DNA of 64,000 bases from Acidimicrobiales bacterium (GCA_041394145.1 JAWKIW010000002.1:379252-443251); one strand, 5' to 3'; shown: positions 17,164 through 37,177, counted from the stretch's first letter. Program-made: numbers and translations. Notes: a model not told the origin generated them from the letters alone.

Positions 17164-17640
17164 CAAGGACACCGCTGCGACCCCTGGGGGCGCGCACGGG
17201 AGCTGCAGGGATCGCAGCAACCGCCGCCCTCGTGGCCGGCGTCGCCACCGAGGCCGGCGCGGCCCCGACGCGTGAACCCGGCGATCGCTGAGACCTCGAT
17301 CTGCGGCCCGGACTCGACCTACGTCCTCGACCTGTACGAGAGCACCGACTTCTCCGGTGACACGCCGTCGTTCCCACCAGCCCGACCTCCGCACCGACAC
17401 CTGGTACAACCTCGTCTACATCTCCATGATCCGCCACCCCTGGAGCTGGAACGACCAGGTCTCCTCGTGGTGGAACAGCTGCAACGCCCCGGCCACCTGC
17501 TCGACCGACTACGGCGGCGGGCGGCTCGAAGCTACTGATGCAGGGCGAGCGCTGCGGCACGAACCCGCACTACTACGACGTGTACATCGGCGACGCGGAA
17601 CGACCTTGCCGTCGGCGTCGACCAGCGTGGCCGCCCGAAG
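17161..17640 (+). pseudogene. secreted beta-gamma-crystallin (Greek-key)-like protein, >=2 frameshifts
   Basis: Signal-like MTRTPLRPLGARTGAAGIAATAALVAGVATEAGAAP. Then ICGPDSTYVLDLYESTDFSGDTPSF / PDLRTDTWYNLVYISMIRHPWSWNDQVSSWWNSCNAPATC / CGTNPHYYDVYIGDAERPC split across three frames (Y..DFSG...PDL...W.D..SS motif). Confidence 0.35.
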
Positions 17641-19296
17641 TCCCCGTGCTGGACGACCGGACGTGGACCCACTGCACGACTGAGGTCGGTGAGCCCGCGT
17701 CCGCGGTGTGGGTCAACCGTCGTCCTGTCCGACCGCCGGTGATCGCCGCTGCCATGGAGGCCGATCACCCGCCGGCCGTGTCGCCGCCGGTCGGGGTGCC
17801 GCCCCGTGCCCCGCCGGCGTTGCCGATGGCGGCCACCTCGTCGCTCCACGAGCGCTACGGCGAACGCCAGTCGCCGATGGCGTTCGTGGGCGACGCTCCG
17901 ATGGGCCTCGCCGCGAGGTCCGGACCACGGCGACCGTCGACGTGTCGGGTCGGTGGCCACTGACGGTGGCCGTGTACGGTGTCCACCGGTGGTGACGACG
18001 GGTGGCCGCCGACCTGGGTCGGCCCCGGCGACGCACCGTGGTTGCCCGGTCACGACGTACCCGTCGACTCCGCCGTCAGGAGCGGGCGGCCTCGGGCCTG
18101 CCGGTCCGCCTCACCGCGATCTCCGACAGCTTGCTGTCGATGTCGACCACGGCCGGGTCGACCTCGTCGGCCACCGACCTGCCAGTCGAATGCGTCGACG
18201 AACCCGGCCGAGGAGGTGGACGGGGTCGCGCAGGTGTCCGGGCTGGGACCGGAGCCAGGGGATGCCCAGCGCCGCACCGCACGGTCCGCCCTCGGCGGTG
18301 TGGTCGGCACCGTCGTTGACCCGGCAGCAGGCCGGGTGGTGGGCGCCGAGGTCGACGGTGGCGCGGTGGTCGAGGGTGGTGCCGATCGACTGGGCGATGT
18401 CGGTGGCGGGCAGGCTCGACGGACGATGCCCGGCTGCTCACGGCCAACAGGGTCGCCACCACCGCTGGTCGACCACGACCACCGCGGCGCGCGACCTACG
18501 GGCAACTGGCTGTGGCCGGTGTACGTCGGCGGCACCGGGGCCACGGGGGCATCGGGCACCCCAGCGACGTCCCAACCGCGTGACGGCCTGCCGTCGGGTC
18601 CCGGCGGCGGCGATCGGACAGCGGGCTCGTCGACGTACGGCTGGGCTCGCTGGAGTGCGGCTGCGACGGCCACCAGGTCAGCCGTGCGCCGACGCTCGGC
18701 GCGTGGCGGAGGCGATCGGTCGGCGCCGAACGGGGGCCAGGACAGGGGTGTCGGTGGGCATGGCGATCCTCACGGTCGAGCGCCGCGAACGGTGCCGTCA
18801 GTGGACGCCGATGACGAGTGGGATCACGCCTGGCAGACCAAGGCAGGGCAAGACCCGTATCCGAAAAGTACCGAGGCTGGCGTGCGAGCACCGCGCACCT
18901 TCGGGCCGGGCTGGTCCGTGACAGCTCTCGACCGGCGTCGTTGGACCATGCGCTCCGAGACGTGCCCTGTGCCTGGGACGGTGCGAACTGTCGCCAGCCG
19001 CCAGCTCGACGGCTATGAGGCTATCGCCGCGGTCGACGTGGTCGGCGACCAAGTGGCCGAGACGGTTACCGCACCGCCGGATCCGGCCCCAGAGCGGGCC
19101 AGACCACCGAAGGCGGCTCACACTGCTGAGCGCAATGGTGGTGAGCTCGAACCGGGAACCGGCGTGCCCTGTCGACACTGCCCAAATCACCGGATCAGCC
19201 CGCCGGTCCTCGGCGTCCCTGATCGCCAGATCCGTGGGGACGGGCGAAGCAAGGCGGTCTTCGGCGTGACGGCTCGTGGATCTTCGTCACTTGTGG

Positions 19297-19640
19297 CTAC
19301 TCGATCTGGTCCTCAGCGGGGAGTGCCGAAGTTGAGGCGGTGTCCATCGATCGTCTCGATGCCGAAGTCGCGCATGCCGTATGGCTGCCTCGCAGGGCGC
19401 AGAACGTCGGAGTCGCGCCGCTGGCCACGAACGTCGCGAACAGCTCGTCGATGTCACCAGCCACGTAGAAGTACGTGCCGTAGTGCATCGGGTCACGCTC
19501 GCCCCGCGACGTCCCGGCCCTGAAGGTGCACACCGGCCTCGTCGCGGTCGAGGATGGCGTAGGTGGCTGGGCCGCCGGGCTCCGCCGTGAAGATCCCGCG
19601 GTCGGGGTCGAGGTTGAACCGCGAGGGTGTCCCGCCACCA
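19297..19640 (-). pseudogene. VOC/glyoxalase-family protein remnant (C-terminal half, 2 frameshifts)
   Basis: Reverse-strand translation gives IFTAEPGGPATYAILDRDEAGVHLQ / DPMHYGTYFYVAGDIDELFATFVASGATP / PYGMRDFGIETIDGHRLNFGTPR-stop, split across three frames. Confidence 0.5.
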
Positions 19641-20607
19641 GGCCGCGCTTCGCAGCCACATCCGGCAACCGAGTACCGGCACCACCCGCGACGACATCGC
19701 CGAAGCCTACCGATCAGGGTCTGCCGCGGCAGCCGTCGACGCTGCCAGGGCCCGAGGGCGTCCCAGACCATCCGGCATGACCCTACCCCGCGAAAGTGGG
19801 CAGATCGTCGGCAGGGCTCACCCGGATGGAGTGTCCGCGCTTGCTGCCTGGCGGCAGATCGGGCCCGGCTCTGGCGCCAGCTGGCGGTGCGTTCCGATCG
19901 CGCGCGCCACGCCAGGCACCGGATGCCAACATGTCCGCGGAACAAACCTGACCGTCCGGTCGGAGCACCAGAGCGGACCGTCGCGGCGGCTGGGGATGTC
20001 GGCCACCAGGATCGTCCTTCCGATCATCTGGTGGACCGCAAGCGTCATCGTGTGGACCAGTCGGATCAGTCGTGCACCGCAGAGATGGGTACACGCCCTC
20101 GGAGGCACGGAGCTTTCCTGACCACCCCACCGGACCCTTCCTCTACCGACGTGGCGTCCCGTCGACGAAGCTCGGCCCGGCATGGTTGATCGCCTTCGAC
20201 GAGTCAGACCTTCGTGATCATCCCACGCGGCCTGCTGACAACGGCCAGGCATTTCTACCGCAGCGAAGAACGGCTGGTCGTGCGAGTCGATCGCGCCCGA
20301 CCGTCGATCTGGCGGTCGCGGGCAAGTGGCCCAGATCACCAAGGGCCCACTCGGAAGACATCGACGCGCGGTTGGCGGCAACCGGCTGGACCGACGAACC
20401 GCTAGCGAGCACTCCCACCACCCCCATGCTTCACCTCGTCCCCTGGCCGCTCCCCATCCAGACCTGACCACGTCCACCGAGCCGACCCAGACCACTGGAC
20501 CCGATCAGCAGATCTGCCCGCACCACCGAGGTATCCAGATCGCCTAATACACGGATGATCCATCTGGCATCCCGTGTGATCTCACCGGCGGCGGGGAGCA
20601 TGCGGGG

Positions 20608-21651
20608 ATGAACCAGTTCCCGTGTTTGATCCGTTCGTCGTCGCCCGGTGGGGAGGCCCGCTTCGCCCTGGGTGATCCGCTCGTGGACGCCTACCTCGAG
20701 TTCGTCGCGGGCCGGGCCCGACCGAACACGTTGCGGGCGGTCGCCCATGACTTGAAGACGTTCTTCACGGTGATCGACAAGGCGCCCGCGGCGGTGGTCA
20801 CCGCCGATGTGTTCGACTTCCTCGCTGACCAACGTGGTGACCGCACCGTGATCCGTCTGTCTGATCGCGAGTCGGGGTTGTCGGCTCGCACGATCGCCCG
20901 GCGGTTGTCGTCGGTGTCGGGCTTGTACGCGTATCTGATCGCTCGGGGCGACACCGGCGTGGACACCAACCCGGTGCCGCGTGGCCTGTCGACCCGGCGG
21001 CGAGGCGGACGCACCCAGATCGTGCCCCTGGTGCGGGTGCCGCGCACCCTGCCCAAGATCTTGTCGCCCGCCGAGGTGAACGCACTGGTGGGTGCGCTGC
21101 GCACCCACCGGGACCGGGCGATGGTGTTCGCGATGGTGCTGGGAGGACTGCGCCGCTGCGAGGTCCTCGGTCTGCGCCTGGCCGACATCCGCGTGCCGGA
21201 CCGGTCGGTGTTCATCGCCGAAGGCAAGGGCGGCCACCAACGCATCGTGCCGATCAGCAACCCGTTCTTCGCGGCGGTCGGCCACTACCTGCGCTCGGAA
21301 CGACCCGCGGTGGACACCGACCGCGTCTTCGTCACCTTGAAGGGCCCCACCCGGGGGCACCCGATGACCCCCGACGGCATCGACAAGATCCTCCAGGCTG
21401 CCCGCCGACGCGGCGGGCTGGAACGGGCGACGTGTCACCAGCTGCGCCACACCTGCCTGACCCGCCTGCGCGAAGCCGGCATGGCCCTCGAAGCGGTCCA
21501 GGCCCAGGCCGGGCACGTCTCGATCGAGTCGACCCGGATCTACCTGCACCTCACCAACGACTGGCTCGCCAACGAATACCGGCGGGCCAGCGAACGCATC
21601 GACGCCGACCACACCGCCGAGCTCCTCGAGGCTCAGGAGATCAACCGATGA
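20608..21651 (+). CDS. tyrosine recombinase (XerC/D-like integrase), intact
   Basis: 347 aa. Catalytic-domain motifs present: LRRCEVLGLRLADI, HQLRHTCLTRLREAGMALEAVQAQAGHVSIESTRIYLH (the Y is the nucleophile). Confidence 0.85.
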   Translation: MNQFPCLIRSSSPGGEARFALGDPLVDAYLEFVAGRARPNTLRAVAHDLKTFFTVIDKAPAAVVTADVFDFLADQRGDRTVIRLSDRESGLSARTIARRLSSVSGLYAYLIARGDTGVDTNPVPRGLSTRRRGGRTQIVPLVRVPRTLPKILSPAEVNALVGALRTHRDRAMVFAMVLGGLRRCEVLGLRLADIRVPDRSVFIAEGKGGHQRIVPISNPFFAAVGHYLRSERPAVDTDRVFVTLKGPTRGHPMTPDGIDKILQAARRRGGLERATCHQLRHTCLTRLREAGMALEAVQAQAGHVSIESTRIYLHLTNDWLANEYRRASERIDADHTAELLEAQEINR

Positions 21652-22930
21652 CTGCCCTTGCTGCGGTCCCCGAACCTGCCACACCGAGCACCCAAGCCGA
21701 CCGCGACTGGGCCGAGCTGTCCGCCACTGCCCCCCAGCTGACCTCGACGATGCGCCGCTACCTGATCCAGCTCGGCACCTTCCTCGCGCCCCGCAGCGTC
21801 GACGTCGCCGACTCGACACTGCGCCCGTTCGCACGCTGGCTCACCACCACCACCGACGTCCGCGTCGTCGCTGGCATCGAACGCCACCACATCGAGGACT
21901 ACAAGGTGTGGCTCGCCGCCCGACCCGGCGCCCGCCCCGGCACCACCCTCGCCAAGAACACCCAACGCCAACGGCTGCGCACGATCCGGATCTTCCTCGA
22001 ACGCCTCATCGAATGGGACTGGCCCGACGCCCCCGGTCGGAACCCGATCCTGCACGGTGACATCCCACCGCGCCCCGAACCGCTCCCCAAGTTCCTCAAC
22101 GACCAAGACGCCGCCAAGTTCATGGCCGCCGCCCGCGCCCACCCCCTCCCGCGCTACCGCCTCGTCGCCGAAATGCTCGCCCGCACCGGCATGCGCGTCA
22201 GCGAGCTGTGCGACCTCACCGCCGATGCCGTCACCCGCATCGGTGACGCCCACTGGCTCCGCATCCCCGTCGGCAAGCTCCGCAACGACCGGTTCATCCC
22301 CCTGCACCCCGACCTCACCCTCGCCGACTGGACCGCCACCAACGCCAACCACATCCGCTCTACAACCGGCTCCTCGCCGACCACCACAAACCCTCGACCG
22401 GCGCACCGCCTACCGCATCGTCGCGGCCCGTCGGCCGCACCGCCGGCATCCACGTGCACCCCCACCAGCTCCGCCACACCCTCGCCACCCAAGCCATCAA
22501 CCGCGGCATGCGCCTCGAAGCCATCGCCGCGCTCCTCGGCCACCGCTCCCTGGAGATGACCCTCGTCTACGCCCGCATCGCCGACCGCGTCGTCGCCGAC
22601 GAATACGCCTCGGTCTGCCAACAGATCGACGCCCTCTACAACACCGCCGCCACCCCCAGCGCCCTGCCCGCCGACATCGAAACCGCCGCCATGACCCGAC
22701 TACGCGAACAAGCCCACGCCCGCATGCTCGGCAACGGACTCTGCACCCGCCCCGCCGAACTCGAATGCCGCATGGAAACCATCTGCGAGACCTGCGCCTA
22801 CTTCACCACCGGCCCCGAGTTCGTCCCCGTCCTCCTCCGCCAACGAGACCACGCCCGCCACCACCACCAACCCGACCGCGCCACCCTCTACGACCAGCTC
22901 CTCGACCAAGCCGCCAAGGACACCCCTTGA
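21648..22930 (+). CDS. second tyrosine recombinase, start overlaps upstream stop (ATGA); apparent frameshifts at ~22.35-22.44 kb
   Basis: ARTGMRVSELCDL, GKLRNDRFIPLHP, then RTAYRIVAA / GRTAGIHVHPHQLRHTLATQAINRGMRLEAIAALLGHRSLEMTLVYARI in other frames. Confidence 0.7.
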
Positions 22931-23086
22931 CACCGATACTGCGTATAACGCCGGCTCGGCTCCAACCTGCCGCCGGCGAGCAGTCCGGCCCCTGTTGGAC
23001 GCGACTCGGCCGTTGACCAGCGGTGTTGTGCCCGAGGGGCCATCATCCCTCAGGTGGGCACCCACTGAGTCGCGTACATTCTGCCT

Positions 23087-23719
23087 ATGCGCCGATCTGC
23101 TTGGCGGAGGGGGTTGCTCGCCGGGGGCATCGTCTTCGTCGCCACGACGGCGGTCTCGACGAGCTACCTCTACTGGTCGTTCCAGTCAGGGCGCACCATT
23201 CGCGCGCCGCGACCGTTCACGGCGTGGTTGTACGAGGGCGCGCTCAACGGGGTCATGGTCGGAGCGGTTGTCGGTGTCGCCGTGGCGGCCGCCGTCTACC
23301 TGCTCAATGTCCGAGATGACGCTAATCAGGTCGACGTTTGCGCACGCGGTGCTCCGGACGGTCTTCTACACGATGGCCATTCGCTTCGTCCGCGGCTCTT
23401 TCCGCGGCAATCGTGGCCAGTGTTGGCGGTGGTGCTGGTCGTGATCGTTGTCGTGTCTGCTTCGATCGCCGCAGTCGGGGTTCGCTCCGACGACGAGCTG
23501 GACAGCAAGGGTTCCGTGGTCCAGTTCGTTGTCGGAGCTATCTACGCGACCTACATCGCGGTCTATGCCGCCTTCTGTGTGTCTGTCGTGGGCATCGTGC
23601 TTTTGCTCATCCGGTGGACGGTTCTGACCCGACGATGGACCGACGCCGAGCGTCTGAACGCTCCACTCTCGCTTCGGGAGGCGCGGACTGGACTCGACGG
23701 AGCGTCCGACACCCAATGA
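23087..23719 (+). CDS. hypothetical integral membrane protein (4 predicted TM)
   Basis: Hydrophobic segments GGIVFVATTAVSTSYLYW, GVMVGAVVGVAVAAAVYLL, LAVVLVVIVVVSASIAAVG and VYAAFCVSVVGIVLLLI. Confidence 0.55.
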   Translation: MRRSAWRRGLLAGGIVFVATTAVSTSYLYWSFQSGRTIRAPRPFTAWLYEGALNGVMVGAVVGVAVAAAVYLLNVRDDANQVDVCARGAPDGLLHDGHSLRPRLFPRQSWPVLAVVLVVIVVVSASIAAVGVRSDDELDSKGSVVQFVVGAIYATYIAVYAAFCVSVVGIVLLLIRWTVLTRRWTDAERLNAPLSLREARTGLDGASDTQ

Positions 23720-23815
23720 CGATCCGTAGGCAGCGAACGAGTCCGAGCGCCGCCATCGAGCGCGGCAGAACGCCGGCAGGGCGCAACGTGAGAGCTCGCG
23801 TGCGTGCGCCGCGGA

Positions 23816-24073
23816 CTAGCCCTGTCCCATGACAAGCGCAGCGATCGCCAAGGCCGCCGTCGTCGCCCAGGCGCCCCCGACGAGCAACGTGCACGCCCAC
23901 CGGTAGAACGGCCACCGGTTCTCGCGCCACTCGTTGTCGTAGATGTCCCGGTTCGCCTTCCGACTCCAGTAGATCCACCGCGGGCTGAAGTACCAGCTCA
24001 CCGCGCTCAGCGTGAGCAACGACGCCATGAACCCGGCGAACATGGCGGCGGCGCCGAGGTCGACGTCCAACAT
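23816..24073 (-). CDS. small membrane protein (hypothetical)
   Basis: MLDVDLGAAAMFAGFMASLLTLSAVSWYF...WACTLLVGGAWATTAALAIAALV, with two TM helices. The longer ORF upstream is an Arg-rich extension. Confidence 0.35.
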   Translation of the reverse strand: MLDVDLGAAAMFAGFMASLLTLSAVSWYFSPRWIYWSRKANRDIYDNEWRENRWPFYRWACTLLVGGAWATTAALAIAALVMGQG

Positions 24074-25007
24074 GGCGCAAAGGACCACGATGGGGCTCAC
24101 CAGCAGTGTGAGCAGCACCACGGCCGAGACAACCGTGCGACCAAGGCAGGCGTCCGATGCCTTACCCGAATACCTGCTGGCGGCGCGCGGCCACCGCCGA
24201 GGGCCACCCCGGAGGCGCCAGCGCCGACGCCGCCGCCTCGACATCCAACGGGCGGAACGCCGCTGCGACCGTCAGCTCGGCGCAACAGCCACCATCGGCC
24301 AACCGGACGCCCGGGCGAACACGACCGCCAGGCACGGGAACGAATCGTGCCGGTGACCGATAGTCGAACTGCTCGATCGGCTGAGCATCAAGTGCAGTCA
24401 CCACGTGTTCGTCGTGTCCGACGACGACCTGCAGCATCCCGTCTGGCTCGACCAGAAGCTCAGCCGGCTCGAAACGCCAGCCACACCGTTCACCGTCCCG
24501 CACAGACGCGGGGACGGCGAGTCGTCGGCCACCCCGGTGGACCGGCGACGACGCCGAGCCACCTTCGGGCGACACGCTCTCCGTGCAACCGGTCCAGGTC
24601 CCCGCTCGACATCGCCACAGCGGGAGAGCGACGAGGTGGTACCAGGGCAGACGATCTTCTTCGCCCCCGGCCGCTGACATGTCGCGACCATACGACCGAA
24701 CGCAGGTGCGGAAACGACGTGGCCCGGAGAGTCGAGTCGTGGGCCCGAATCTCGGGCCGCGCCGCGGCTGCGACGCCGCTGCACCTGGGCAGGCTCCGGC
24801 GGAAGCCAGAGGCTCACGATTGAAGAGCGCCCCAGAACACCCCACCGATGTATCCCCGATCATCAGCCCGCGATCATGCCGATCGCCGGCTCGGCGTGGC
24901 CTTGAGGGGTCTGGCCCCCCAAAAGGCACGAGGGATGAGGGTGAATGCCACCAGCTGCCGTCAGCCCAGGATCGCCCAGTCGTTCGCCTGCGATAGCGTG
25001 GAATCGA

Positions 25008-25170
25008 GATGTCGAGCGAGCTGATCCAGCCCAGCCATGACGACAGCTTGGAGCTGCCCGTCGAGCTGCTGCTGCGTCGCGCACGGCCGCTGCCACCCCA
25101 CGAGGAGATGGTGATCGACGATCTCACCAGCGAAGAGGGTGACGCCTTCCTCGCCGCGCTACGACAGTGA
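25008..25170 (+). CDS. vapB: antitoxin of VapBC-type TA pair (54 aa)
   Basis: MSSELIQPSHDDSLELPVELLLRRARPLPPHEEMVIDDLTSEEGDAFLAALRQ. Its stop overlaps the toxin start (GTGA). Confidence 0.6.
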
Positions 25171-25601
25171 CGCCGCCTACCGGCCGCAGCGCCGTCGTCA
25201 TCGACATCGATGTCTTCGGAGCGGATCTCGTACCCAGTTCTGCTCTGGCAGGGCGATACGAGCCGCTGATCGTCGGACGGCCGGCGTTCATCTCCTTCCA
25301 GACCGCCGCTGAGCTGCGCTATGGAGCCATGCTCCGCAGCTGGGGCGACGCACGCTTGCTGAAGCTCGAAGCGAGGATCGCCGCAGCCGAGGTCGTGCAC
25401 ACCGGCCCAGATCTGATCGAGGTCTACGCGCGACTCCGGGTGGCATGCCAGCGCGCAGGCCACGGCCTGTCCCAGCGCGAACACGACGCAGACCGCTGGA
25501 TCGCTGCAACCGCAATCCGGCTCGGTCTCCCCCTCGTGTCGAACGACACGATCTTCGAGGGCGTGCCGGGACTCGTCCTGGAGTCCGCCCACGACGAATA
25601 G
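25167..25601 (+). CDS. vapC: PIN-domain ribonuclease toxin VapC
   Basis: VIDIDVF...D, AAELRYG, EVYARLRV, D.WIAATAIRLGLPLVSNDTIFEGVPGL: conserved acidic PIN residues in canonical order. Confidence 0.8.
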   Translation: MTPPTGRSAVVIDIDVFGADLVPSSALAGRYEPLIVGRPAFISFQTAAELRYGAMLRSWGDARLLKLEARIAAAEVVHTGPDLIEVYARLRVACQRAGHGLSQREHDADRWIAATAIRLGLPLVSNDTIFEGVPGLVLESAHDE

Positions 25602-25832
25602 GGCGCCACCCCAACCGACGCCTATCCCAGATCAGCAGATCAGCGCGAACGCCGGCCGCGTCCCTGATCGCCGGCTCCGCCAATGCGCTTCCCATGGCGC
25701 ACTGCGGTCGCCCGCCGGTGAGTCACCCGGAGCGGGCGGCGAGCCGGACCGGTCGCCGGGATCCGCGGGCCGGTCCGTCGACCATGGGCGCGGGATAGGG
25801 TCACGTCGGTTCGGCGGACGAGAAGCCGGGAG

Positions 25833-27014
25833 GTGGGGGCGGTGGCGCTCGACGACACATACGCGCCGGTGGACAGCGTCGATCGGGAGGCGGCACGCAC
25901 CGCGGTGAGGGACCTGACGGTTGCGATGATCGACCACTTCGTGGACGGTTCTGCCAACGTTGCGTGCTCGGGGCTGGGGCTGTGGAACGTCGTTGCGGTG
26001 CTGGCGTCGGGAGCCGACGGTGCGACCGCCGACGAGTTGGCGTCGCTGATCGGGGTGAGCGCGGACCGCGCCGCCGCCGCGGTAACGGGCCTCGACACCG
26101 ACGTGGACGCCGTCGACGGGGTGGCCCACGCTCTGGGGATGTGGAGCCAGGTGCCCACCTACCGGGCCTGGCGCGAGGAGCTGCCGACGATCGGGGTCGC
26201 CCACCTCGGCGACGACACCGACCTGGCCGCCTGGGTCGCCGACCACACCGGCGGCGCCATCCCCGGCTTCGACCTCACGATCCCATCCGACGCCCTGCTG
26301 GTGCTCGCCGACCTGATCCGGGTGAAGGTCACCTGGGCCGACGCCTTCCCCAAGGACAGCACCCGCCACCGGGCCTTCCGGGCTCCCGGCGGCGACGCGG
26401 ACGTGTCGACCATGACCAAGACCGACGCCACCGACTGCCTGGCGGTGGTGGGACGCACGCTCACCTACGACGTGCCCACCACCGCCGGAGAGGGCCCGGC
26501 GACGGTGATGCGCTTCGCCATCGGTGCCGCCGATGCCTCACCCGCCGAGGTCATCGGCGACATCATCGCCCCGCACCAGCGACGGCGACCCCTGTCGGCG
26601 TGCACCTGGTCGGACCTGCCCGACGACGCCACCACCGACAGCGATCTCCCGCCGGGCTCCTTCGGCCGGTTCACGGTGTTCCTCCCCAAGTTCGCCACGA
26701 CGACCAGCCTCGACCTGCTCAGCCTCCTCGACGTCCTCGGTGCTCGCCGCTGCCAGACCGACCAGGCTGGGTTCACGCGCATGTCCCCCGAGCCACTCAT
26801 GGTCGAGCAAGCGCTGCAGGACAGTGAGGTGAAGCTCGACGAGGCCGGCGTCGAGGCCACGGTCGTCACCCGCTCGTCCATGGTCACCACCGGTAGGTAC
26901 AAGAGTCCGGACCTCGAGGTCTTCTTCGACCGACCCTTCGGCTACGCCCTGGTCACCGAAGATACCGGCCTGCCCCTCTTCGCTGGTTGGGTCGCCGACC
27001 CCACCGTCACCTGA
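25833..27014 (+). CDS. serpin (serine protease inhibitor family)
   Basis: Hinge/RCL EAGVEATVVTRSSMVTTGRY and FDRPFGYALV, plus N-terminal FVDGSANVACSGLGLWNVVAVLASGADGATADELASL: serpin shutter and breach motifs. Confidence 0.75.
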   Translation: MGAVALDDTYAPVDSVDREAARTAVRDLTVAMIDHFVDGSANVACSGLGLWNVVAVLASGADGATADELASLIGVSADRAAAAVTGLDTDVDAVDGVAHALGMWSQVPTYRAWREELPTIGVAHLGDDTDLAAWVADHTGGAIPGFDLTIPSDALLVLADLIRVKVTWADAFPKDSTRHRAFRAPGGDADVSTMTKTDATDCLAVVGRTLTYDVPTTAGEGPATVMRFAIGAADASPAEVIGDIIAPHQRRRPLSACTWSDLPDDATTDSDLPPGSFGRFTVFLPKFATTTSLDLLSLLDVLGARRCQTDQAGFTRMSPEPLMVEQALQDSEVKLDEAGVEATVVTRSSMVTTGRYKSPDLEVFFDRPFGYALVTEDTGLPLFAGWVADPTVT

Positions 27015-27164: not shown

Positions 27165-28493
27165 TCAACCGGATGAGGTGTCGTCGTGGTCGCTCGGCCC
27201 GTTGCCGTGAGGGAGCTCGTCAACGACGGCGGGTCGAAGGTTGTTCTCCTTGATGAAGCGCAGTCGCTGTTGCGCTCGTTGTCGCGCCATGACGCGGTCT
27301 TGGCCGTGTTCGACGGCGGCAACCCCTGCAGAGAAGGTGACCGGCCGTCCCGCTATCAGGCGTCGATGGTGGTGGTCGTCGAGAAGAGCGCGCAGCCGCC
27401 GGGTGAGCTCGTGCTCGTCGAGGTTGGGGACAGCCACGACGAACTCGTCGCCGCCCCAGCGGCCGACCTGACCTTCGGGGTCGACGTCGCCCAGCAGGCG
27501 CGCCACGGTGCACAGGGCCTGGTCGCCGGCGTCGTAGTTGTCCGCCGTGGCGTTGAAGCCGCGCAGGTCGTCGAGATCGACGAACGCCACCGCGAACGGG
27601 ACAGGCAAAGCGTTGAGCGCCCGTTCGGTCCCGACGCGGTTCAACACGCCGGTGAGCCCATCGTGGTCGGCGCGTTCCTCCGCGTCGGACAGTCGACGCC
27701 TGAGATCCCGGATCTCGGCCTGCGTGCCCCGCACCGAGACCCCGGCGGTGGCTTCGAGGTGCTCGAGGCGCTGCACCAGCGGCACGAGGCGCTCCCAACG
27801 GGCGTCACTTCGGGCGGCCCACAAAGCGTTGGCATGGGTCGGTGACGGCCCCGCCCGCGGCGTGACCTGCAGCTCGATCGCCACGCAACGGTCCCCGAGG
27901 TCGACGTCGCCACCGCAACCGGCACGGATGCGGCGAGCCAACTGGGTGACGCCGTCGGCGGGCAGCCGGTCGACGAGCACGGCCAGCTCGCTGGGGCCCA
28001 CCCGACCGACGGTGACCGCGTCGGCGACGGTGGCATGCAGGCGGCGGGCCAGCTCGTCGAGGACACGGTCACCCACCTCGCGGCCCACATCCCGGTTGAG
28101 GTGGCGCAACCCGACCAGGTTCACCAGCGCCACCCCGTACGACAGCCGGGTCCCGGCCGATCGGGCCCGCCCGTCGACCTCGGCCAGCCGCTGGAGGAAC
28201 ACGACCTCGGAATCCCACGGCTCATCGCCCCGCGCCACTCCGACAGTATTGCCCTCGCTCCAAGCCCGCACCGAGGCGACCGACGAAGTGTCAACGGCTG
28301 CTCCCCGAACGCCGGCTATGTGCGCGACAACTACGGCGAGCTCCACGTCTGGTTCGCACGGTGGTGCGTCGTAGCTGTCCGAGACGTGAACCTGGCCCGG
28401 GACTCGGTGGCCTCGTGGTCCGTAGCGTTCCCGACGGCGACCTCCCTGACATCGCCGACTGCTGGCCGACGTGGCCGACCAGGCGCAACGCAC
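27165..28493 (-). CDS. diguanylate cyclase: degenerate N-terminal GGDEF-like domain + coiled coil + canonical GGDEF domain
   Basis: C-terminal domain DGLTGVLNRVGTERAL...VAFVDLDDLRGFNATADNYDAGDQAL...GRWGGDEFVVAV. N-terminal region SYGVALVNLVGLRHLNRDVGREVGDRVLDELARRL lacks GGDEF. GTG start 12 bp after upstream stop. Confidence 0.75.
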   Translation of the reverse strand: MRCAWSATSASSRRCQGGRRRERYGPRGHRVPGQVHVSDSYDAPPCEPDVELAVVVAHIAGVRGAAVDTSSVASVRAWSEGNTVGVARGDEPWDSEVVFLQRLAEVDGRARSAGTRLSYGVALVNLVGLRHLNRDVGREVGDRVLDELARRLHATVADAVTVGRVGPSELAVLVDRLPADGVTQLARRIRAGCGGDVDLGDRCVAIELQVTPRAGPSPTHANALWAARSDARWERLVPLVQRLEHLEATAGVSVRGTQAEIRDLRRRLSDAEERADHDGLTGVLNRVGTERALNALPVPFAVAFVDLDDLRGFNATADNYDAGDQALCTVARLLGDVDPEGQVGRWGGDEFVVAVPNLDEHELTRRLRALLDDHHHRRLIAGRPVTFSAGVAAVEHGQDRVMARQRAQQRLRFIKENNLRPAVVDELPHGNGPSDHDDTSSG

Positions 28494-29074: not shown

Positions 29075-29282
29075 GTCGTCCACATTCTTGCCGACCCCCA
29101 CCGACTGACTTGACACCGGGTCCGGCGAGGTGCCGTGCCCGGGGGCCTTGCGGTTTGGTCTGGTGTGAGGTCGACCACTGTGGCCGGGTTCGTCACCGCC
29201 ACGTTGATCTGGTGTGCACCTCGAGCGCCGCCCCGAGGAATGTCCGACAAACGCCGGCGACATCGGTTCACCACTCGCCGCG

Positions 29283-29408
29283 ATGGAAAGCGACTGGAAA
29301 ATGGCATTCGGCGAGCTTGAGGCTCTCACCAGGGCGATCAACAAGCGCGCTCAGTACCTGACTGCGTGCCGAGTGCGTGTGGCGAAGGCGGACGACCGGG
29401 GGATCTGA
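29283..29408 (+). CDS. small ORF (41 aa), hypothetical
   Basis: MESDWKMAFGELEALTRAINKRAQYLTACRVRVAKADDRGI. Sits in a lower-GC stretch. Confidence 0.2.
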   Translation: MESDWKMAFGELEALTRAINKRAQYLTACRVRVAKADDRGI

Positions 29409-30490
29409 TCACGATCCATGGTCATGTCGACGAGTTGTGGGAGGTATTCTCGGCCTGCTCTCGCCGGAGCGAGCCGCGGTTCGCCAAGTGCCGTGGTGCG
29501 CTACTCGTTGACATGCTCATGTCGAGGACGGCTTTCAAGCGCAGCCGATCGCCAGGTAGGTCCGGCTTGCGGGTCTATCCCAGATCGCCGGCCTGGTTGA
29601 TGCGCTCGACGAAGCAGTGCCGGCGAGTGGGCTCATCGGCGAGACTGGCTCATGGCATTCGGACAAACAGGGCGGGTCCACCCGCGACTTCCCGACAGAC
29701 AAAGGAGTTGCTCGATCTCTACGTACGCGGGACACAGCGATTTCCGAGACGCTCGTTGGCCCGATGGGGTTCACGCAATGCCAGGCCGCCGGTAGGTTCA
29801 CCCGAGACGAGGCCGACGCGCCCATCACACACCAACTTCGCGACGCGGCCGATGCCGCGGAGGAGGGTGTGGGCGAATCCGACGCACACGCGCCTGATCG
29901 GCTTCGCTCTGCGGCGGAGCAAGACCGAGTTGGCCTCACCAAGGTTCCGGACGGGGTTGCCTGCGGCGGAACTGCAACGGCGTGGGTGGATCGTCGTCGA
30001 ACCTGGAGTGAGCAGCAGCGTCCCATAACACCTACAGCGCTCAGAAACAACGTACCCGCTGCCCCTGAACGCCGGCTCCGCCGCGACGTTGCTGTCTGGC
30101 GCCGGGACGGCGCGGCCGTAGATCGGGCGGCTCGTCCGGCGGCCGTTGACGGTGGTGGGCTACGAGGACATACGGGCCGTGGGCCGTCGGCGAGCGATGC
30201 ACGCCGCTTCTTCCACGTCGGCCATAACGGGTGACCGTCCTGAACGCCTCCCGGCAGACGTCTCGGATGGCCTGACGCGGAGAGCCGGGACTCGTCGGGT
30301 CGCGCGACGGTTCGGGCGTCCAGCAAGGGGTTTGAGGGTGAGCCCTGTTCCGCCCGTCCCGGTCTGACTGATTCCACGACCGAGATGTGGAGACCGTCGC
30401 TGAGTTCGGGGTGGGTCTGAATAGGTAGAGCCGTGTCGTCCGTGGCTGCGTCGTGTGCCCGGGCGTCCGAACCCGTCAGGAGAACCCCTC

Positions 30491-30727
30491 ATGGACATCG
30501 ACTCCCTGCCCGACATGCTCCGGGTCGACGAGGCTGCGGCGGTGCTGCGGATCAGTCGCAGCCGGGCCTATGAGGAGGTCGCGGCGTTCCAGCGCACGGG
30601 CGGTGTCGAGGGCTTAGCGTCGATCCGCATCGGTCGCACGCTGCGGGTCCTCGAAGCGGGCGCTGCTGGCGTGGATCGAGGCGCAGCTTGGCGGCCCGAG
30701 CGCTGCGTGACCGTCGCCGGCTCGTGA
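30491..30727 (+). CDS. xis: excisionase / MerR-like HTH DNA-binding protein (Xis family); indel near 30645 (canonical reading ends 30710)
   Basis: MDIDSLPDMLRVDEAAAVLRISRSRAYEEVAAFQRTGGVEGLASIRIGRTLRV. In the +1 frame PSKRALLAWIEAQLGGPSAA-stop is the canonical excisionase tail. Confidence 0.7.
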   Translation: MDIDSLPDMLRVDEAAAVLRISRSRAYEEVAAFQRTGGVEGLASIRIGRTLRVLEAGAAGVDRGAAWRPERCVTVAGS

Positions 30728-31615
30728 TCGATGTCGACGTGGCGGCGCTTGCACGCGCGGCGAGGTCGGTCAGATCGGCTGGCTGGTGCTCGAGGCGATC
30801 GCCGGACACGCATCGCCCGGCGTCGCGTGGTCGAGGCTCTCGTGCGCAGCCTGCGGTCGCAGGCAGTGACGCGTCGGGGTGTCGAGGGACTGGGGTGGCC
30901 CGGGCGTTGCGGTCGCTGATCGACGCTGGGGATCGTCGGCGCGTAGATGACCGCGACGAGCAGAGGGGTCGGCTCCCGTCGGCGACCTACCGGGTCGACC
31001 TGGCGGCCGACGGCATCACCGTCGTCGCCGTGTCGCAGGACACCGTCGAGGCACCTGCCGTCATGGACTAGCCGGCCAACGACTCGCGCCCGGTCGACCA
31101 GCTCAGCCTCACCTGGACGCCAGTCCCGCTCCGATGCTCGCCGCCATGCCAGTCGCCGTCACTGCCGCCACGACCCATGGGCGACCAGAGATGGCTCACA
31201 GACTTGCACGCGGTCGTGCGGACCCTGGTCGGGACCGTCGGTGGCGCCGTCGAGGCCGCTGGCGCCGGCGGCGTGGACGACTCGACGGCCGGCAGAGCTG
31301 GGTGATCGATCGGGTGCGCCTGTGGTAGGCGCGCCGCCTGTCGTTCGTCCTGCTGGCAGGTCGGGTTACGGCGCCGGGTCGTTCAGCGAGGCGTCAGGAG
31401 GGGTCGGGACGCGGTGGGCAGGTCGTTGGTCGGGTCGTGGCTCGGTCGTTCGCTGTGGCCGCCTTGGCGCCGGGAGGCGGTCGGCCTGGGTTGCTGCGGC
31501 AGAGGCCGTGGGTCCCGGGTTCGGTCCCCGGGTGGGGTTCGGTCCTGGTGGCCCGGCCACCCCGGATTGAGGCGGATCGGCGCGGCGGCGGCGGGCTGGG
31601 AGTGGGTCTAGGTCG

Positions 31616-34154
31616 GTGGAGGTTCGTGTCGTGTTGAACATCGGGAAGCTGGCGGCGGGCAAGGCCGGCTACTACGTGTCGCTGGCTGCTGGGGTCGAGG
31701 ACTACTACACTGACACGGCGAACCTCCGCCGAGCCCGACGGCGCCGAGCTGCTCGGCTTGGCCATTGCCGGCACCGTGACGGCCGACGATCTGGTCACGG
31801 TGCTGGGTGGGCGGGCGCCGGGGACTGGCGAGCGGCTGACGGGCTCGGGTGGCGGGGTTCGATCTGGACGTTCCGGGCGCCGAAGTCGGTGTCGTTGCTG
31901 TACGGGTTGGGCGAGGCCGACACGGTCGCCGGCGTGGTGGTCGATCGCGCGACGAGGCGGCTGTGGACGCCGCGGTCGGCTACCTCGAGCGGGCCGCCTG
32001 GTGCGACCCGCCGCCGGGTCGACGGGACGATCACCCGGTTCGCGGGGAGGGGTCTGCTGCGGCCGGGTTCGGCACCAGACGTCGCGGCGGGGACCCGACC
32101 CTGCACACCCACGTGCTGGTGGCGAACATGACCTGCACACCCGGCGGCCGGTGGGGGCGCTGGACGGGCGACGGGTCTACGAGCACGCCTTGATCGCCGG
32201 CTACTTCTACCAGGCCCAGCTGCGGGCCGAGCTGATCCGCCGCCTCGGCGTCGAGTGGGACTGCGGTCAACGGCTGTGCCGACGTCGCCGGTGTCGACGA
32301 CGGGGTGATCGCCGCGCCTTCCGGCGGCGCGCCGAGATCCTCGAACGTCTGACCAGCGCGGCCAGCGGTCGGCCCGGCGCAGGCGGCCACGCTCGACACC
32401 CGCCGCGCCAAGGACTACCGCCACGGCCGGGTCGACGCCACCGAGCTGCGGAGCCGCGGGCCGAACGCGGCGACCGGGTCGGGTTCGGACCGGCACAGGT
32501 GGCCGGGTTGTCGACGCCGGCGTCCGACGAACCCTCCTCCCTGGCCCAGGTCGGCGACATCTTCCGCGATCTGGCCGGCCCCGACGGGCTCACCAAGCAC
32601 AAGAGCACCTTCACCCGCCCCGACGTGCTGCGAGCGTTCGCGTCGGCGCTGCCCGACGGCGCCGACGTCGCCGCCATCGAAGACCTCGCCAGCTTCTACC
32701 TGTTCGCCACCGAACCGGTCGCAGTCGGTGACGTGCACGGCGCCGAGGCGTGGACGACCCAGGACCTCCTCGACACCGAACGACGGGTGCTCGCCGGCAT
32801 CGCCGCCCGCCGACACGCCGGCACCGGCATCGCCGACCGGGCCGAGGTGGCCGCCGCCATCGGTGCCCGGCCCACCATCGGTGACGAGCAGGCCGACATG
32901 GTCGCCGACCTGTGCCTGGCCGGACACGGCGTCGACGTCGTGGTGGGTGCCGCCGGCACCGGCAAGACCTTCGCCCTCGACACCGCCCGCGTCGCTTGGG
33001 AGCGCTCCGGGTACCGGGTCCACGGCGCCGCCCTGTCGGCGCGGGCCGCCGCCGAGCTGCAGGCCGGCTCGGGCATCGAGTCGACCACGATCGCCCGGCT
33101 GCTCGGCCAGATCGACGCCGGCCGGACCCGACTCGATACCCGGGCGGTCGTGGTCGTCGACGAAGCCGGCATGGTCGGCACCCGGACCCTGGACCGGCTC
33201 CACCAGGCGACCTCGGCCGCCGGCGCCAAGCTGGTGCTCGTCGGTGACCCCGCCCAGCTCCCCGAGATCGACGCCGGCGGCGCCTTCGCGGCGCTCACCG
33301 AACGCCTCGACCCGATCCGCCTCGTCGACAACCGCCGCCAGGTCCACCACTGGGAACGCGGCGCCCTCGACGACCTGCGCTCCGGCCGGATCGCCGCCGC
33401 CGTGGCCACCTACCAGCAACGGCAGCGCATCGTGGTCGTCGCCGACCCCGACGAGCTGCACACCCGCGTCGTCCAAGACTGGTTCGCCTCCCACCAGGCA
33501 GGGGACCAGGCGCTCATGGTCGCCGCGCACCGCGCCGAGGTCCGAGACCTCAACCAACGAGCACGCCAGCTGCTCGACGACGCCGGCCTCCTCGGCCCGA
33601 CCCGCCTACGGGTCGGCGGCCACGAGTTCGCCGAAGGCGACCGGGTCATGGCCGTCGGCCGCAACCACTACGACCTCGACATCCTCAACGGCGACCTCGG
33701 CACCATCACCGGCATCGGACCCAACGGCGACATCACCTTCCACGCCGACCGAACGGCCGAGCCACGCACGATGCCCGCCGCCCGCATCGAAGCAGGCTTC
33801 CTCGACCACGGCTACGCCCGCACCAACCACAAGACCCAAGGCGCTACGGTCGACCGCACCTTCATCCTCGGCGACGACGGCGACCTCGACCGCCAAGCCG
33901 CCTACGCCGCCCTGTCCCGGGGTCGCATCGAGAACCGCCTCTACGTGCCGGACCCCGACGACGACCTCCTCCTGGACACACCAGCTGCCTCCCCGATCCA
34001 CGAGCACGTCACCTACGAGCTGTCCCGCGACCGATCCCAACGCCTCGCCACCGACCACCTCGACGCCCAGGCCGGCCGCGCCGACGACCTGGACGCCCAC
34101 CTGCCCCACGCCCACCCCGATCCCGAACCCACCGTCGACAACGACCTCTGGTGA
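31616..34154 (+). CDS. MobF-family conjugative relaxase (TrwC/TraA N-terminal relaxase + RecD-like helicase); relaxase domain split over 3 frames
   Basis: MEVRVVLNIGKLAAGKAGYYVSLAAGVEDYY (YY/DYY motif), WTFRAPKSVSLLYG, DPTLHTHVLVANMT (HxH motif), WRALDGRRVYEHALIAGYFYQAQLRAEL, helicase motifs GAAGTGKTF, VVVDEAGMV, LVGDPAQLP. Confidence 0.85.
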
Positions 34155-34184: not shown

Positions 34185-34440
34185 TTGCGTCGGCGGGGCT
34201 GGTGGAGCCGCCTGGTACCGTGCCGGTGTGGCGCTGCGCCGAGACGACCTGACCCTGAGCAGCTGGAGCTCCAGCGGGCGCTGGATCGATCGTGGACCGA
34301 GGCCCAGCGGGGGCTCGCCGACCCGGAGTTCCGGGCCTACCTCGAGGACTCGATGCGCCGGCTCGATGCCAGGGAGCCGGCCCCGATGCTCACCCGCGAG
34401 GAGTTCCTGGCGCAGACCAGGATCCTCGACCAGCAGTGCC
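34185..34440 (+). CDS. putative antitoxin (ParD/Phd-like C-terminal motif); start/stop unclear
   Basis: ...ELQRALDRSWTEAQRGLADPEFRAYLEDSMRRLDAREPAPMLTREEFLAQTRIL. Duplicated outside the island at 35097-35313. Confidence 0.3.
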
Positions 34441-34448
34441 CCTCCGAG
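34232..34448. repeat. ~215-bp direct repeat, element-internal copy (antitoxin-like region)
   Basis: gaccctgagcagctggagctccagcgggcgctggatcgatcgtgg... about 92% identical to 35097-35313. Confidence 0.6.
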
Positions 34449-34711
34449 ACGTCGAGGAGTTCCACCGCTGGATCGAGCGGGAGTCCCTGTCGATCGCGGC
34501 CCAGCGAGTCGCCCGCCACTCTCGCCGAGGTCGGCGACGAGGCCTGGCGATCACCGAGTGTCCCGGTCGAAGCCCTTTCGAACCAACCGGAGTACGAAGT
34601 GCGCGAGAGGTCGCCCTTCCTGCCGAGGGCGACGACCGGCCGGTCCGGCTCTGGTACCGCCACATCTACGCCACGGACGCTGTCGATGTCATCGCCGTCA
34701 CCAACCGGTGA
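34437..34711 (+). CDS. putative ParE/RelE-superfamily toxin (GTG start overlapping antitoxin frame)
   Basis: VPLRDVEEFHRWIERESLSIAAQRVARH...RPVRLWYRHIYATDAVDVIAVTNR-stop has ParE-like motif spacing. Low confidence. Confidence 0.3.
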
Positions 34712-34798: not shown

Positions 34799-34904
34799 AA
34801 CTGCACGACACAGGCCCACATCGGCTGGTACGGGCCGACACAAACCTCGGGAAAACCGCAGGTCAACGGCACAATCGCGCACTGGCTGGACAAGCAGGTC
34901 AGAC

Positions 34905-35058
34905 CTACGACATCTTCGAGGGCACCGAGCAGATCCAGCAGCTCGTGATCGCCCGGGCCATCTCCGGCCTGCGCGTCGAGTAGTCCTGACCTGCGCGTTC
35001 TTCTGTCAGAGGCCCGCTCACCGGAGCGGGCCTCTGGCGTTGTCGGACCCGGGATCGG
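34905..35058. repeat. attR: 154-bp direct repeat (copy 2), displaced ACAD 3' fragment + hairpin
   Basis: Encodes ...YDIFEGTEQIQQLVIARAISGLRVE-stop with no upstream gene body. Hairpin at 35008-35037. Confidence 0.8.
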
Positions 35059-35096
35059 TCCTGTCCCGCGGGCGCTCGGGTAGCGTGCGTGCGTGG

Positions 35097-35313
35097 CGCG
35101 GCGTCGAGACCGCTTGACCCTGAGCAGCTGGAGCCTCCGGCGGGCGCTGGATCGATCGTGGGCCGAGGCCCAGCGGGGCTCGCCGACCCGGAGCTCCGGG
35201 CCTACCTCGAGGACTCGATGCGCCGGCTCGATGCCAGGGGGCCGGCCCCGCTGGTCACCCGCGAGGAGCTCCTGGCGCAGACCGAGGTCCTCGACGGGTA
35301 GTGCCCCTCCGAG
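35097..35313. repeat. ~215-bp direct repeat, chromosomal copy just outside attR
   Basis: Same sequence with two compensating 1-bp indels. The antitoxin-like ORF ends with TAG here. Confidence 0.6.
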
Positions 35314-35443
35314 ACGTCGAGGAGCTCGGCCACATCATCAGGGACGGCGGTCCCGAGGACGTCGAACGCCTCCACCGAGCCGAGCGGCGGCCCCGCTGGA
35401 CCCGACCATCCTGCGTGTCACACGCCCTCGTCATGATGGGAGC

Positions 35444-37177
35444 ATGGTCGAGGGATCGGGGTTCTCCGACGTGTCGCTGGAGCTGGTCGGTGCCGTCGGG
35501 GGCATCGTCGGTGCAGCAGCCGTGGACCCGGCGTCGGCGTCCGACGAGGACCTGTGTGCGGCGATGGTGACGTTGGAGGGGGTGCGGCGGGCCGTCGACG
35601 CCCTGCAGGCGCGGGTGGTGGCCGAGGCCGACGCCCGCGACGTGTGCAACCTCGCCGACGGGCTGTCCACGGCGCGGTGGCTCGCCCGCGAAGCCGGCCT
35701 GGCCGGGGCGACGGCCAAGCAGCGGGTCAAGGTCGCCAACGTCCTGTGTCGCCACCTCGACGTCGTCCACCAGGCACTGGCCGACGGTCGCATCTCGTGG
35801 GACCACGCCCGGGTGCTGGCCGATCTGGTGAACCCCCGTGTCGTCGACCAGGTCGTCGCCCTGCAGGGCGAGCTGGTGGCGCTGGCGGAGCTGTGCGGGT
35901 TCGAGCGGTGGCGCCGCGAGGTCACCGCCGTCGTGGCCCGGTTGGACCACGACGGTGGCTACGACCCCGCCGCGGACCTGGCGCGGAACCGGCTGCGGGT
36001 CGGACCGGTGCTGGGCGGCGTCGCCGACGTGTCCGGCTCGTTGACCGGTGACCACGCCGTGCTCGCGGCGCACGCCATCGACACCGTCGCCGACGAGCTG
36101 TTCCACCGCTACCGCCGCGACCACGACCAGTGCCCCGACATCGAGGTGCCGTCGCGGGCGACCTTGCGGGCACTGGCCCTGGTCGAGCTGTGCCGCCGCG
36201 GCCTCGCCACCGACCCCCGCTCGTCCACGCCGCCGCGGCCCGAGATCGTGGTCGTCACGCCGGCGTCGGATCCCCTCGATGCCGATGCGCTCGCCGATGC
36301 GGCCACCCTCGACGGTGTGCCGTTGCCGGACGGCACGATGCGGCTGCTGGCCTGTGACGCTGCCTGGCGGGCGCTGATCGTGGACCACCTCGGCGTCCCG
36401 TTGGACCTGGGTCGCCGCGTCCGGTTCGCCACCCCCGACCAACGGCTGGCACTGGCCGTGCGCGACGGCGGCTGCGTCTTCCCCGGCTGTGACGCCCCAC
36501 CGTCGTGGTGCGACGCCCACCACCTCGACGAGTTCGTCCGCCACCGCGGCCACACCGATCTCGTTCGGCTCGCCCTGCTGTGCCGCCACCACCACGGCGT
36601 CACCCACCGCCGGGGCTGGACGATGCGGTCCACGGGCGACGGGTGGTTCCGGTGGCAGACGCCGACCGGCCGCACCCTCCACTCCCAACGCCACGGCCGC
36701 CGACGAGCCGGTGCCGATCCCCGGGGAGGCCGGCCACCACGAGCGCCACGCACCACCGACCACCTCGGGCCGCGCGAGATGGCCTGCACCTCCACCACCC
36801 TCTGTGCCACCGCTCCCATCACCGCCACGGTGCCCTCGAGTGGCGTGGCGACAGGTGCTCGTCGGGTCGCGACGCGCACCTGGTCGACTCCGGCGGTGCC
36901 GCCGCTCGTCGGCGTCAGGCGGGGTCGAGCACGAAGAGCGGGATCACCCGCTCGGTGGCCGCCTGGTAGCTGTCGTAGTCGGGCCAGACCGCAGTGGCGC
37001 GGGCCCACCACGTCGACTTCTCGTCGCCGTGCACCTCCCGAACCGTGTAGTCGCCGAGGACGTCGCCGTCCTGGAGCCGCGCGACGGCGTTGGCGCGGAC
37101 GTTGTGCACCCACTGCGGGTTGGTCGGCGCACCACCCATCGAGCCGACCACGGCGTAGCGGCCCTCGCCGTCGCTGA
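35444..37177 (+). CDS. DUF222 + HNH endonuclease protein (REP13E12-like); real C-terminus probably ~36.75 kb, ORF reads through to 37177
   Basis: MVEGSGFSDVSLELVGAVGGIVGAAAVDPASASDEDLCAAMVTLEGVRRAVDALQARVVAEAD. C-terminal HNH GGCVFPGCDAPPSWCDAHHLDEFVRHRGHTDLVRLALLCRHHHGVTHRRGW. Confidence 0.7.
   Translation: MVEGSGFSDVSLELVGAVGGIVGAAAVDPASASDEDLCAAMVTLEGVRRAVDALQARVVAEADARDVCNLADGLSTARWLAREAGLAGATAKQRVKVANVLCRHLDVVHQALADGRISWDHARVLADLVNPRVVDQVVALQGELVALAELCGFERWRREVTAVVARLDHDGGYDPAADLARNRLRVGPVLGGVADVSGSLTGDHAVLAAHAIDTVADELFHRYRRDHDQCPDIEVPSRATLRALALVELCRRGLATDPRSSTPPRPEIVVVTPASDPLDADALADAATLDGVPLPDGTMRLLACDAAWRALIVDHLGVPLDLGRRVRFATPDQRLALAVRDGGCVFPGCDAPPSWCDAHHLDEFVRHRGHTDLVRLALLCRHHHGVTHRRGWTMRSTGDGWFRWQTPTGRTLHSQRHGRRRAGADPRGGRPPRAPRTTDHLGPREMACTSTTLCATAPITATVPSSGVATGARRVATRTWSTPAVPPLVGVRRGRARRAGSPARWPPGSCRSRARPQWRGPTTSTSRRRAPPEPCSRRGRRRPGAARRRWRGRCAPTAGWSAHHPSSRPRRSGPRRR

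Follow-up and report, generated by a model that had tools for sequence, protein, structure and literature searches.

The window, meaning the whole 64-kb stretch of DNA that was analysed, has a G+C content of 71% and contains an integrated island with a gene for a relaxase fused to a helicase at its right end (Table 1). Two direct repeats of 158 nt are present, and the left one covers the 3' end of an acyl-CoA dehydrogenase gene together with its terminator hairpin; the repeats therefore delimit a 32.4-kb integrated island, extending from position 2617 to 35058. No tRNA genes were found in the 64-kb window.

The left end of the island is occupied by the gene for a tyrosine integrase. Three tyrosine recombinase genes are arranged in tandem, and a gene for a small, excisionase-like helix-turn-helix protein lies upstream of the relaxase gene; in homologous islands, an HTH_17 gene is found in the matching position. 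The island also encodes a serpin, a GGDEF protein, a fragment of a PIN protein and two large open reading frames without a Pfam match. Further integrase fragments are present as well, and large parts of the island contain no recognisable genes.

Table 1. Coordinates of the features of the island and of the relaxase-helicase gene. Frames are given as the coordinate modulo 3.
Feature	Position	Strand	Remarks
Left direct repeat (attL)	2617-2774		acyl-CoA dehydrogenase gene 1449-2699, its 3' end together with the terminator hairpin
Tyrosine integrase, left island end	2831-4007	+	Pfam Phage_integrase, positions 2-171/172, E=9e-18
IS21-like istA and istB	12565-14092 (istA), 14060-14864 (istB); together 12565-14864	+	about 14 and about 7 small frameshifts, respectively
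Frameshift cluster	22333-22447	+	115 nt containing 3 frameshifts; belongs to the second gene of the tandem tyrosine recombinase trio (20608-23016)
Small helix-turn-helix protein	30455-30727	+	HTH_17/23/28 type, excisionase-like; upstream of the relaxase gene
MobF/TrwC relaxase and RecD-like helicase gene	31631-34154	+	846 codons with the indels taken out; from frameshift-aware alignments to P0002, P0004 and P0005
Catalytic tyrosine motifs	31670-31708	+	GYY 31670-31675 and DYY 31700-31708, both in frame 2; align to TrwC SYY and DYY (PDB 1omh)
Indel-dense patch, relaxase domain and linker	31712-32528	+	18-19 frame-breaking indels; from DNA and protein-to-DNA alignments and GC frame plot
APKSVS motif	31877-31894	+	frame 2; GFDL (equivalent of TrwC D85) upstream, on the other side of a +1 insertion near 31866
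Histidine triad region RHQTSR-GDPTLHTHVLVANM	32071-32130	+	split by the loss of 2 nt near 32087
DPTLHTHVLVANM motif	32092-32130	+	frame 1
Annotated ORF MEZ5141822.1, 'AAA family ATPase'	32151-34154	+	667 aa; GTG start lies within the frame mosaic, first ~126 residues partly out of frame
(G)ALDGRRVYEHALIAGYFY block	32154-32213	+	frame 0; ALDGRRVYEHALIAGYFY itself at 32157-32213
SF1B RecD-like helicase half, clean	32529-34154	+	zero frameshifts versus P0017, P0002 and P0004
Right direct repeat (attR)	34901-35058		95% identical to 2617-2774, 32,284 nt away

Genes for transfer machinery are not found near the relaxase gene, as the original prediction had stated. In a Pfam search of the island open reading frames of at least 200 residues and of 121 stop-free segments that cover its unannotated parts, a search which indel-dense or novel genes could escape, no VirB4, VirD4/TraG, FtsK/SpoIIIE or replication families were detected. 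Genes for a type IV secretion system (T4SS) are also not called within 6-10 kb of five homologues of the relaxase in other genomes, where the relaxase is likewise accompanied by a recombinase, by cargo and by small genes of HTH or unknown type; the absence of a channel is therefore typical of the clade. With the limits of the island defined, and with the five homologues equally devoid of T4SS genes, the view that the partners of the relaxase must act in trans is supported.

Judged by its sequence, the element fits best among the integrative mobilizable elements, and it would depend on a helper. It has a site-specific recombinase, flanking direct repeats, a relaxase and no genes for mating-pair formation; the Pfam families expected of a conjugative element (either an ICE of the T4SS type or an AICE with an FtsK-like TraB) do not occur in it. 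Once the island had been excised, an oriT on it would be nicked by the relaxase, which would bind covalently to the DNA via its tyrosines; the helicase part would unwind the island DNA, and the relaxase would be exported by the type IV secretion system of another element. An oriT was not identified, the search for inverted repeats giving only weak repeats upstream and downstream of the relaxase gene.

Reading frame and identity of the relaxase-helicase gene

The relaxase gene likely starts at the GTG at 31631, just before which GGTGGAGG is found, with the GTG at 31616 as an alternative, and it ends at the TGA at 34152-34154. In the deposited sequence there is no single continuous open reading frame for both domains. 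The four motifs of the original prediction were all found, in TrwC order and in three different frames, between 31670 and 32213, with support from Pfam TrwC fragments and from alignment with homologues. The (G)ALDGRRVYEHALIAGYFY block is one of them, although the 'WRAL' reported there actually reads 'GAL' in frame 0. The motifs are not chance occurrences, because the fragments match Pfam TrwC and because frameshift-aware alignment gives 67-75% identity to intact homologues of 850 residues.

As deposited, the sequence matches the TrwC family of Pfam only by fragments, with scores of 35.5 and 23.9 bits (E=1e-8 and 4e-5). The reconstructed protein of 846 residues matches the same family (PF08751) with 214.7 bits over positions 4-272 of 286, and the NCBIfam MobF model NF041492 with 197.9 bits, against a cut-off of 100. 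It aligns to residues 14-263 of the TrwC structure 1omh (E=4e-27), and in this alignment the tyrosine pairs, the aspartate of GFDL and the H...HxH triad (RHQTSR, LHTHV) are conserved.

In the helicase half, the Walker A motif GAAGTGKT (32946-32969) is intact and VVVDEAGM is present at 33150-33173; Pfam matches are to AAA_30 (177 bits), AAA_19, SH3_13 and TraI_hel_assoc_N. This half had been described as one clean reading frame from 32.4 kb on. It is indeed clean, showing no frameshift against three homologues, but it starts only at 32529. With 100% identity, the clean C-terminal part matches MEZ5141822.1, a protein of an Acidimicrobiales metagenome-assembled genome (MAG) located on a 443-kb contig. 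The gene is best explained as a normal, probably functional one for a relaxase of the MobF (TrwC) type with a RecD-like helicase fused to it.

Distribution of the indels in the gene and in the island

The indels were placed by alignment with intact relatives of about 850 residues, using a custom frameshift-allowing protein-to-DNA aligner and DNA alignment to three intact homologous genes from other genomes. The relaxase half proved to be fragmented, but not into just three pieces: 18-19 separate frame-breaking indels were mapped between 31712 and 32528. Most of them, about 14, remove 1, 2 or 4 nt, and four add 1-2 nt. Their approximate sites are 31713, 31739, 31764, 31839, 31866, 31944, 32000, 32046, 32069, 32087, 32156, 32257, 32323, 32350, 32373 and 32457, and these 16 events, up to 32457, cause a net change of -14 nt; a compensating pair follows near 32512-32521 and 32528. 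An in-frame insertion of 9 nt at 32418 resembles natural variation. The GC frame plot reveals the same frame changes, and does so without using any homologue. The reading frame 31758-34154 is open, yet it is a frame mosaic over its first ~770 nt, up to about 32528. Programmed frameshifting was considered as a candidate and rejected, as 18 shifts of both signs would not be decodable.

All lesions lie within 817 nt of the 2.5-kb gene, at a density of about one per 45 nt, and there are none in the other ~1.6-1.7 kb. Were lesions uniform along a gene that its first frameshift had released from selection as a whole, such clustering would, by our own calculation, have a chance of about 0.32^17, or ~1e-8. 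Several of the deletions are located in runs of G or C, but the sites share no motif and have no strict homopolymer context.

Once restored to frame, the patch resembles a coding sequence under constraint. Its reconstructed frame contains no in-frame stops, and the G+C content at the first, second and third codon positions is 0.75/0.57/0.90, compared with 0.78/0.49/0.91 in the clean half. Identity to homologues per codon position is 0.80/0.86/0.58 in the patch and 0.85/0.89/0.58 in pairs of intact genes; as read from these alignments, the codon-position divergence is that of purifying selection, with at most a few percent of extra change. Dividing N-terminal by C-terminal identity gives about 1.07 here and 1.19 ± 0.05 for intact pairs. 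The deficit in identity amounts to a few percent and stems in part from about ten codons near 31730-31760 that could not be restored to frame.

Similar lesions are present elsewhere in the island. The IS21-like istA and istB genes contain about 21 frameshifts in total, as counted relative to a copy on a Mycobacterium plasmid to which the proteins are 57-66% identical; they contain no in-frame stop, and their GC3 is 0.87. The IS21 element is located 18 kb upstream of the relaxase gene. A smaller cluster of frameshifts is found in the second of the three tandem recombinases, the first of which is clean. Several other island genes are also clean across 1-2 kb. Outside the island, the chromosomal genes that were checked show complete domain matches; they encode an acyl-CoA dehydrogenase (all four domains), a DUF222 protein, an F420H2 quinone reductase, a zinc alcohol dehydrogenase, a diacylglycerol kinase, a DUF2252 protein (1-391/392), a radical SAM-SPASM protein, a sulfatase (1-301/301) and a Band 7 protein. 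With these chromosomal and island genes clean, the assembly is therefore accurate in general, with patches of small indels (about 1-2%) in mobile-element modules.

A homologue-free error map, calculated by hidden Markov segmentation of the GC frame, also shows the island to be patchy; it confuses the strands and is too noisy for counting errors. When the genes upstream of the relaxase (29.0-31.7 kb) were compared with the genes flanking the relaxases of relatives, only low-complexity matches at noise level were obtained.

Origin of the indels

We consider that the shattering of the relaxase is most likely not biological and that the patch consists of uncorrected small-indel errors in the Acidimicrobiales MAG, a reading to which we assign a probability of roughly 0.78; that sequencing indels in one variant or another are responsible is likewise probable. 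The data show directly the map of the indels, the intact protein beneath them, the limits of the island, its lack of T4SS genes and the recurrence of the signature in IS21 and a recombinase; we infer the technical cause, and with it the assembly step that failed. A technical cause is favoured because the lesions are exclusively indels, are only 1-4 nt long, are clustered, introduce no stops and leave GC3 and the codon pattern as they were, and because the same signature is repeated in the IS21 genes and the recombinase while chromosomal genes are intact. The original prediction had left the choice between decay and sequencing indels; an indel-only patch without stops and with its codon pattern kept speaks for the latter and disfavours the former.

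Such patches would remain where a long-read consensus stayed uncorrected, for example in repeats or conserved mobile modules, onto which short reads would map ambiguously; alternatively, a hybrid assembler may, in our view, have filled a gap with long-read sequence. That short-read polishing leaves residual errors in repeats is among the observations made in PMC8812927, and gene-fragmenting errors in long-read assemblies are among those described in PMC12007338. Two relatives of the relaxase, on long contigs with names in the 'contig_N' style of Flye, are also split, by one or two frameshifts.

Several observations go against an artefact. The chromosomal genes are highly accurate, so a local failure must be assumed. 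A second copy of the N-terminal region of the relaxase, which would explain ambiguous mapping, was not found, and in a collection of 5.8 billion proteins neither half of the gene has a near-identical copy, the best matches after the gene itself being 71-78% identical. About one lesion per 45 nt is also far denser than in other split relaxases, which have one or two per gene. Finally, the lesions fall exactly in selfish genes (transposase, relaxase and recombinase), as the decay of an old island would also produce.

Such decay would make the gene a genuine pseudogene: the selfish genes of an old island would have been inactivated by small indels, and the helicase half would be selected as an independent ATPase of 667 residues. 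Restriction of the lesions to mobile-element genes, with cargo and chromosomal genes intact, is consistent with this, as are the lesion-free helicase half and its public annotation as a 667-aa protein, the identity of just 95% between the att repeats, the other integrase fragments of the island and the existence of at least one relative that is truly truncated (L011). We nevertheless regard true decay as unlikely. In bacterial pseudogenes, substitutions exceed indels by about 10:1 or more, and indels at ~2% of sites should have been accompanied by roughly ten times as many substitutions, but codon-position conservation and GC3 are essentially unchanged and an in-frame stop is not present. Neutral decay would be expected to lead to lesions across the whole gene, many substitutions, stops and larger deletions, whereas here the lesions are not spread, stops are lacking, the codon pattern is not relaxed and the deletions are not of varied size; every lesion is 1-4 nt long. 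Stop codons weigh little for the relaxase alone, the simulated probability of finding none being 0.16 at 10% substitution; by our own extrapolation to about 1,000 affected codons, including those of IS21, it falls to about 0.04 at 5%. Moreover, an insertion sequence that has 21 frameshifts and still encodes a conserved protein is hard to obtain naturally.

A different technical route would be a consensus of a mixed population, in which reads from several diverged versions of the same conserved modules, be they copies or strains, ended up through collapse or mis-polishing in one chimeric consensus, and the indels arose in this way. The affected stretches are the most conserved ones, the relaxase domain being 79% and the helicase 67% identical among relatives, and apart from the relaxase they comprise the IS21 genes and the one patch in the second recombinase; related relaxases are also abundant in Acidimicrobiia metagenomes. 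The collapse of variants, however, usually yields mosaic substitutions instead of frame-breaking indels, and no copy of more than 80% identity was found in public data, making a mixed population an improbable source.

If the fragmentation were true, it would suggest either that the helicase half of the relaxase had been domesticated or that mobile DNA is subject to an unusual mutational process. In an Acidimicrobiales population, catalytic genes of mobile elements (the relaxase domain, the IS21 transposase and helper, one recombinase) would then carry recent 1-4-nt indels with almost no substitutions, which we consider very improbable. Real indels of this kind would call for a process that specifically produces indels and targets selfish DNA, for instance repeated targeted breaks followed by error-prone end joining, with the helicase half retained as a separate protein. 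Whether by error-prone end joining at mobile genes or in the form of a cryptic gene corrected by insertional RNA editing, such a biological origin seems extremely unlikely. All that speaks for it is the nature of the lesions, which are dense, consist of indels alone and affect no genes other than those of mobile elements, facts that a technical cause explains too; the indel sites share no motif, and we know of no such indel-specific process in bacteria.

The organism itself most likely lacks this fragmentation, and uncorrected assembly indels of this kind have consequences for annotation. In the public record, the MobF relaxase misleadingly appears as a 667-aa 'AAA family ATPase', and intact calls of the IS21 genes are also improbable. 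Counts of pseudogenes, or of 'decaying' mobile elements, made from such assemblies would be inflated.

Comparison with known systems

The lesions resemble the residual indels of long-read and hybrid assemblies in being small and gene-fragmenting; in the cases presented in PMC8812927 these are concentrated in repeats, whereas the affected relaxase domain of the present gene is not demonstrably a repeat.

With TrwC of plasmid R388 (PDB 1omh), the reconstructed protein shares an N-terminal relaxase domain of the HUH type, in which the paired tyrosines, the aspartate and the histidine triad are all present, and a C-terminal SF1B RecD-like helicase. TrwC of R388 contains 966 residues; the protein described here is shorter at its C-terminus, with 846. 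Its gene also differs in being chromosomal, as part of an integrated island, with neither a T4SS nor a coupling protein in its vicinity, and in having a relaxase domain that, as deposited, is not a continuous open reading frame.

Like integrative mobilizable elements, the island has an integrase and a relaxase, lacks a mating channel and is flanked by direct repeats where it adjoins the 3' end of a host gene. It differs in that no oriT was identified and in that large parts of it contain no recognisable genes; its excision and mobilization are predicted.

The same length is found in the MobF relaxases of about 850 residues from Acidimicrobiia MAGs (P0002-P0016), some of which are named 'MobF family relaxase' or 'conjugative relaxase-like TrwC/TraI family protein'. 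Identity to them is 63-71% for the helicase half and about 70-77% for the reconstructed relaxase half. These relatives are intact open reading frames or contain one or two frameshifts, in contrast to the 18-19 of the present copy. Their surroundings are alike, with a serine or tyrosine recombinase, small HTH or unknown genes and cargo, and with no T4SS within 6-10 kb; around the relatives in L004 and L005, even the pair of tandem tyrosine recombinases recurs. The underlying biology is ordinary, that of a relaxase-only integrated island of a kind that seems to be common in Acidimicrobiia.

Indel-dense patches in the window and frameshifts in other assemblies

In the public annotation, the relaxase gene is represented by a 667-amino-acid 'AAA family ATPase' (MEZ5141822.1), the start of which falls within the frame mosaic; for this reason, the relaxase domain is absent from the annotated proteome. 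The IS21-like istA/istB pair is a second indel-dense patch of the window, bigger than that of the relaxase gene. It contains about 21 small frameshifts and no in-frame stops, and its GC3 is 0.87.

Split relaxase homologues are also found elsewhere. In L009 and L010, loci from two other long-contig metagenome-assembled genomes (ENA ERZ25039538 and ERZ25039533, with Flye-style contig names), one or two frameshifts separate the TrwC open reading frame from that of the helicase. The C-terminal tail of the homologous public protein P0037 (ENA contig, 560 amino acids) corresponds to an out-of-frame translation of the window near position 33439; therefore, P0037 itself terminates in a frameshift.

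Coordinates of the features discussed
Feature	Sequence	Position	Strand	Remark
Duplicated block, inner copy	window	34214-34462
Duplicated block, outer copy	window	35079-35327
DUF222 protein gene	window	35093-37177
Annotated ATPase	window	32151-34154
Large ORF	window	6859-9117
Large ORF	window	9267-10342
Serpin gene	window	25833-27014		island cargo, apparently intact
GGDEF diguanylate cyclase gene	window	27165-28493	(-)	island cargo, apparently intact
Weak-periodicity stretches	window	4008-6858, 10343-12560, 14865-20600, 22922-25830, 29108-31627
istA/istB (IS21-like)	window	12565-14864
Split relaxase homologue	L009	6001-8707
Split relaxase homologue	L010	6001-9182
Tandem tyrosine recombinases	window	20608-23016
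Homologous recombinase pair	L004	5698-8705
Homologous recombinase pair	L005	7275-10282

Island contents and the right attachment repeat

Two large open reading frames of the island are clean and have a strong coding signal, with zero matches to Pfam. In five long stretches of the island, coding periodicity is weak or switches fast and there are hardly any Pfam matches; among their contents are a PIN domain and, at about 15.3-16.1 kb, fragments of integrases. These stretches could consist of decayed DNA or hold novel genes, or they could be more patches dense in indels.

A block of about 250 nucleotides is present twice (84-95% identity, spacing 865 nucleotides), one copy just inside and the other just outside the right attachment repeat. 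The block, which codes for the beginning of a small open reading frame (…DPEFRAYLEDSMRRLDAREPAP…), may have been left behind by a tandem integration that took place earlier, or may be flanking DNA that was captured. Directly outside the repeat lies a DUF222 protein gene, its long open reading frame extending about 230 codons beyond the end of the domain match.

Tandem tyrosine recombinases

The first of the tandem recombinases is clean, and the second contains three clustered frameshifts. In two metagenome contigs from JGI (loci L004 and L005), proteins of 348 and 654 amino acids form a homologous pair close to the intact relaxase homologue. The tandem arrangement in the window resembles a 'recombinase in trio' element.
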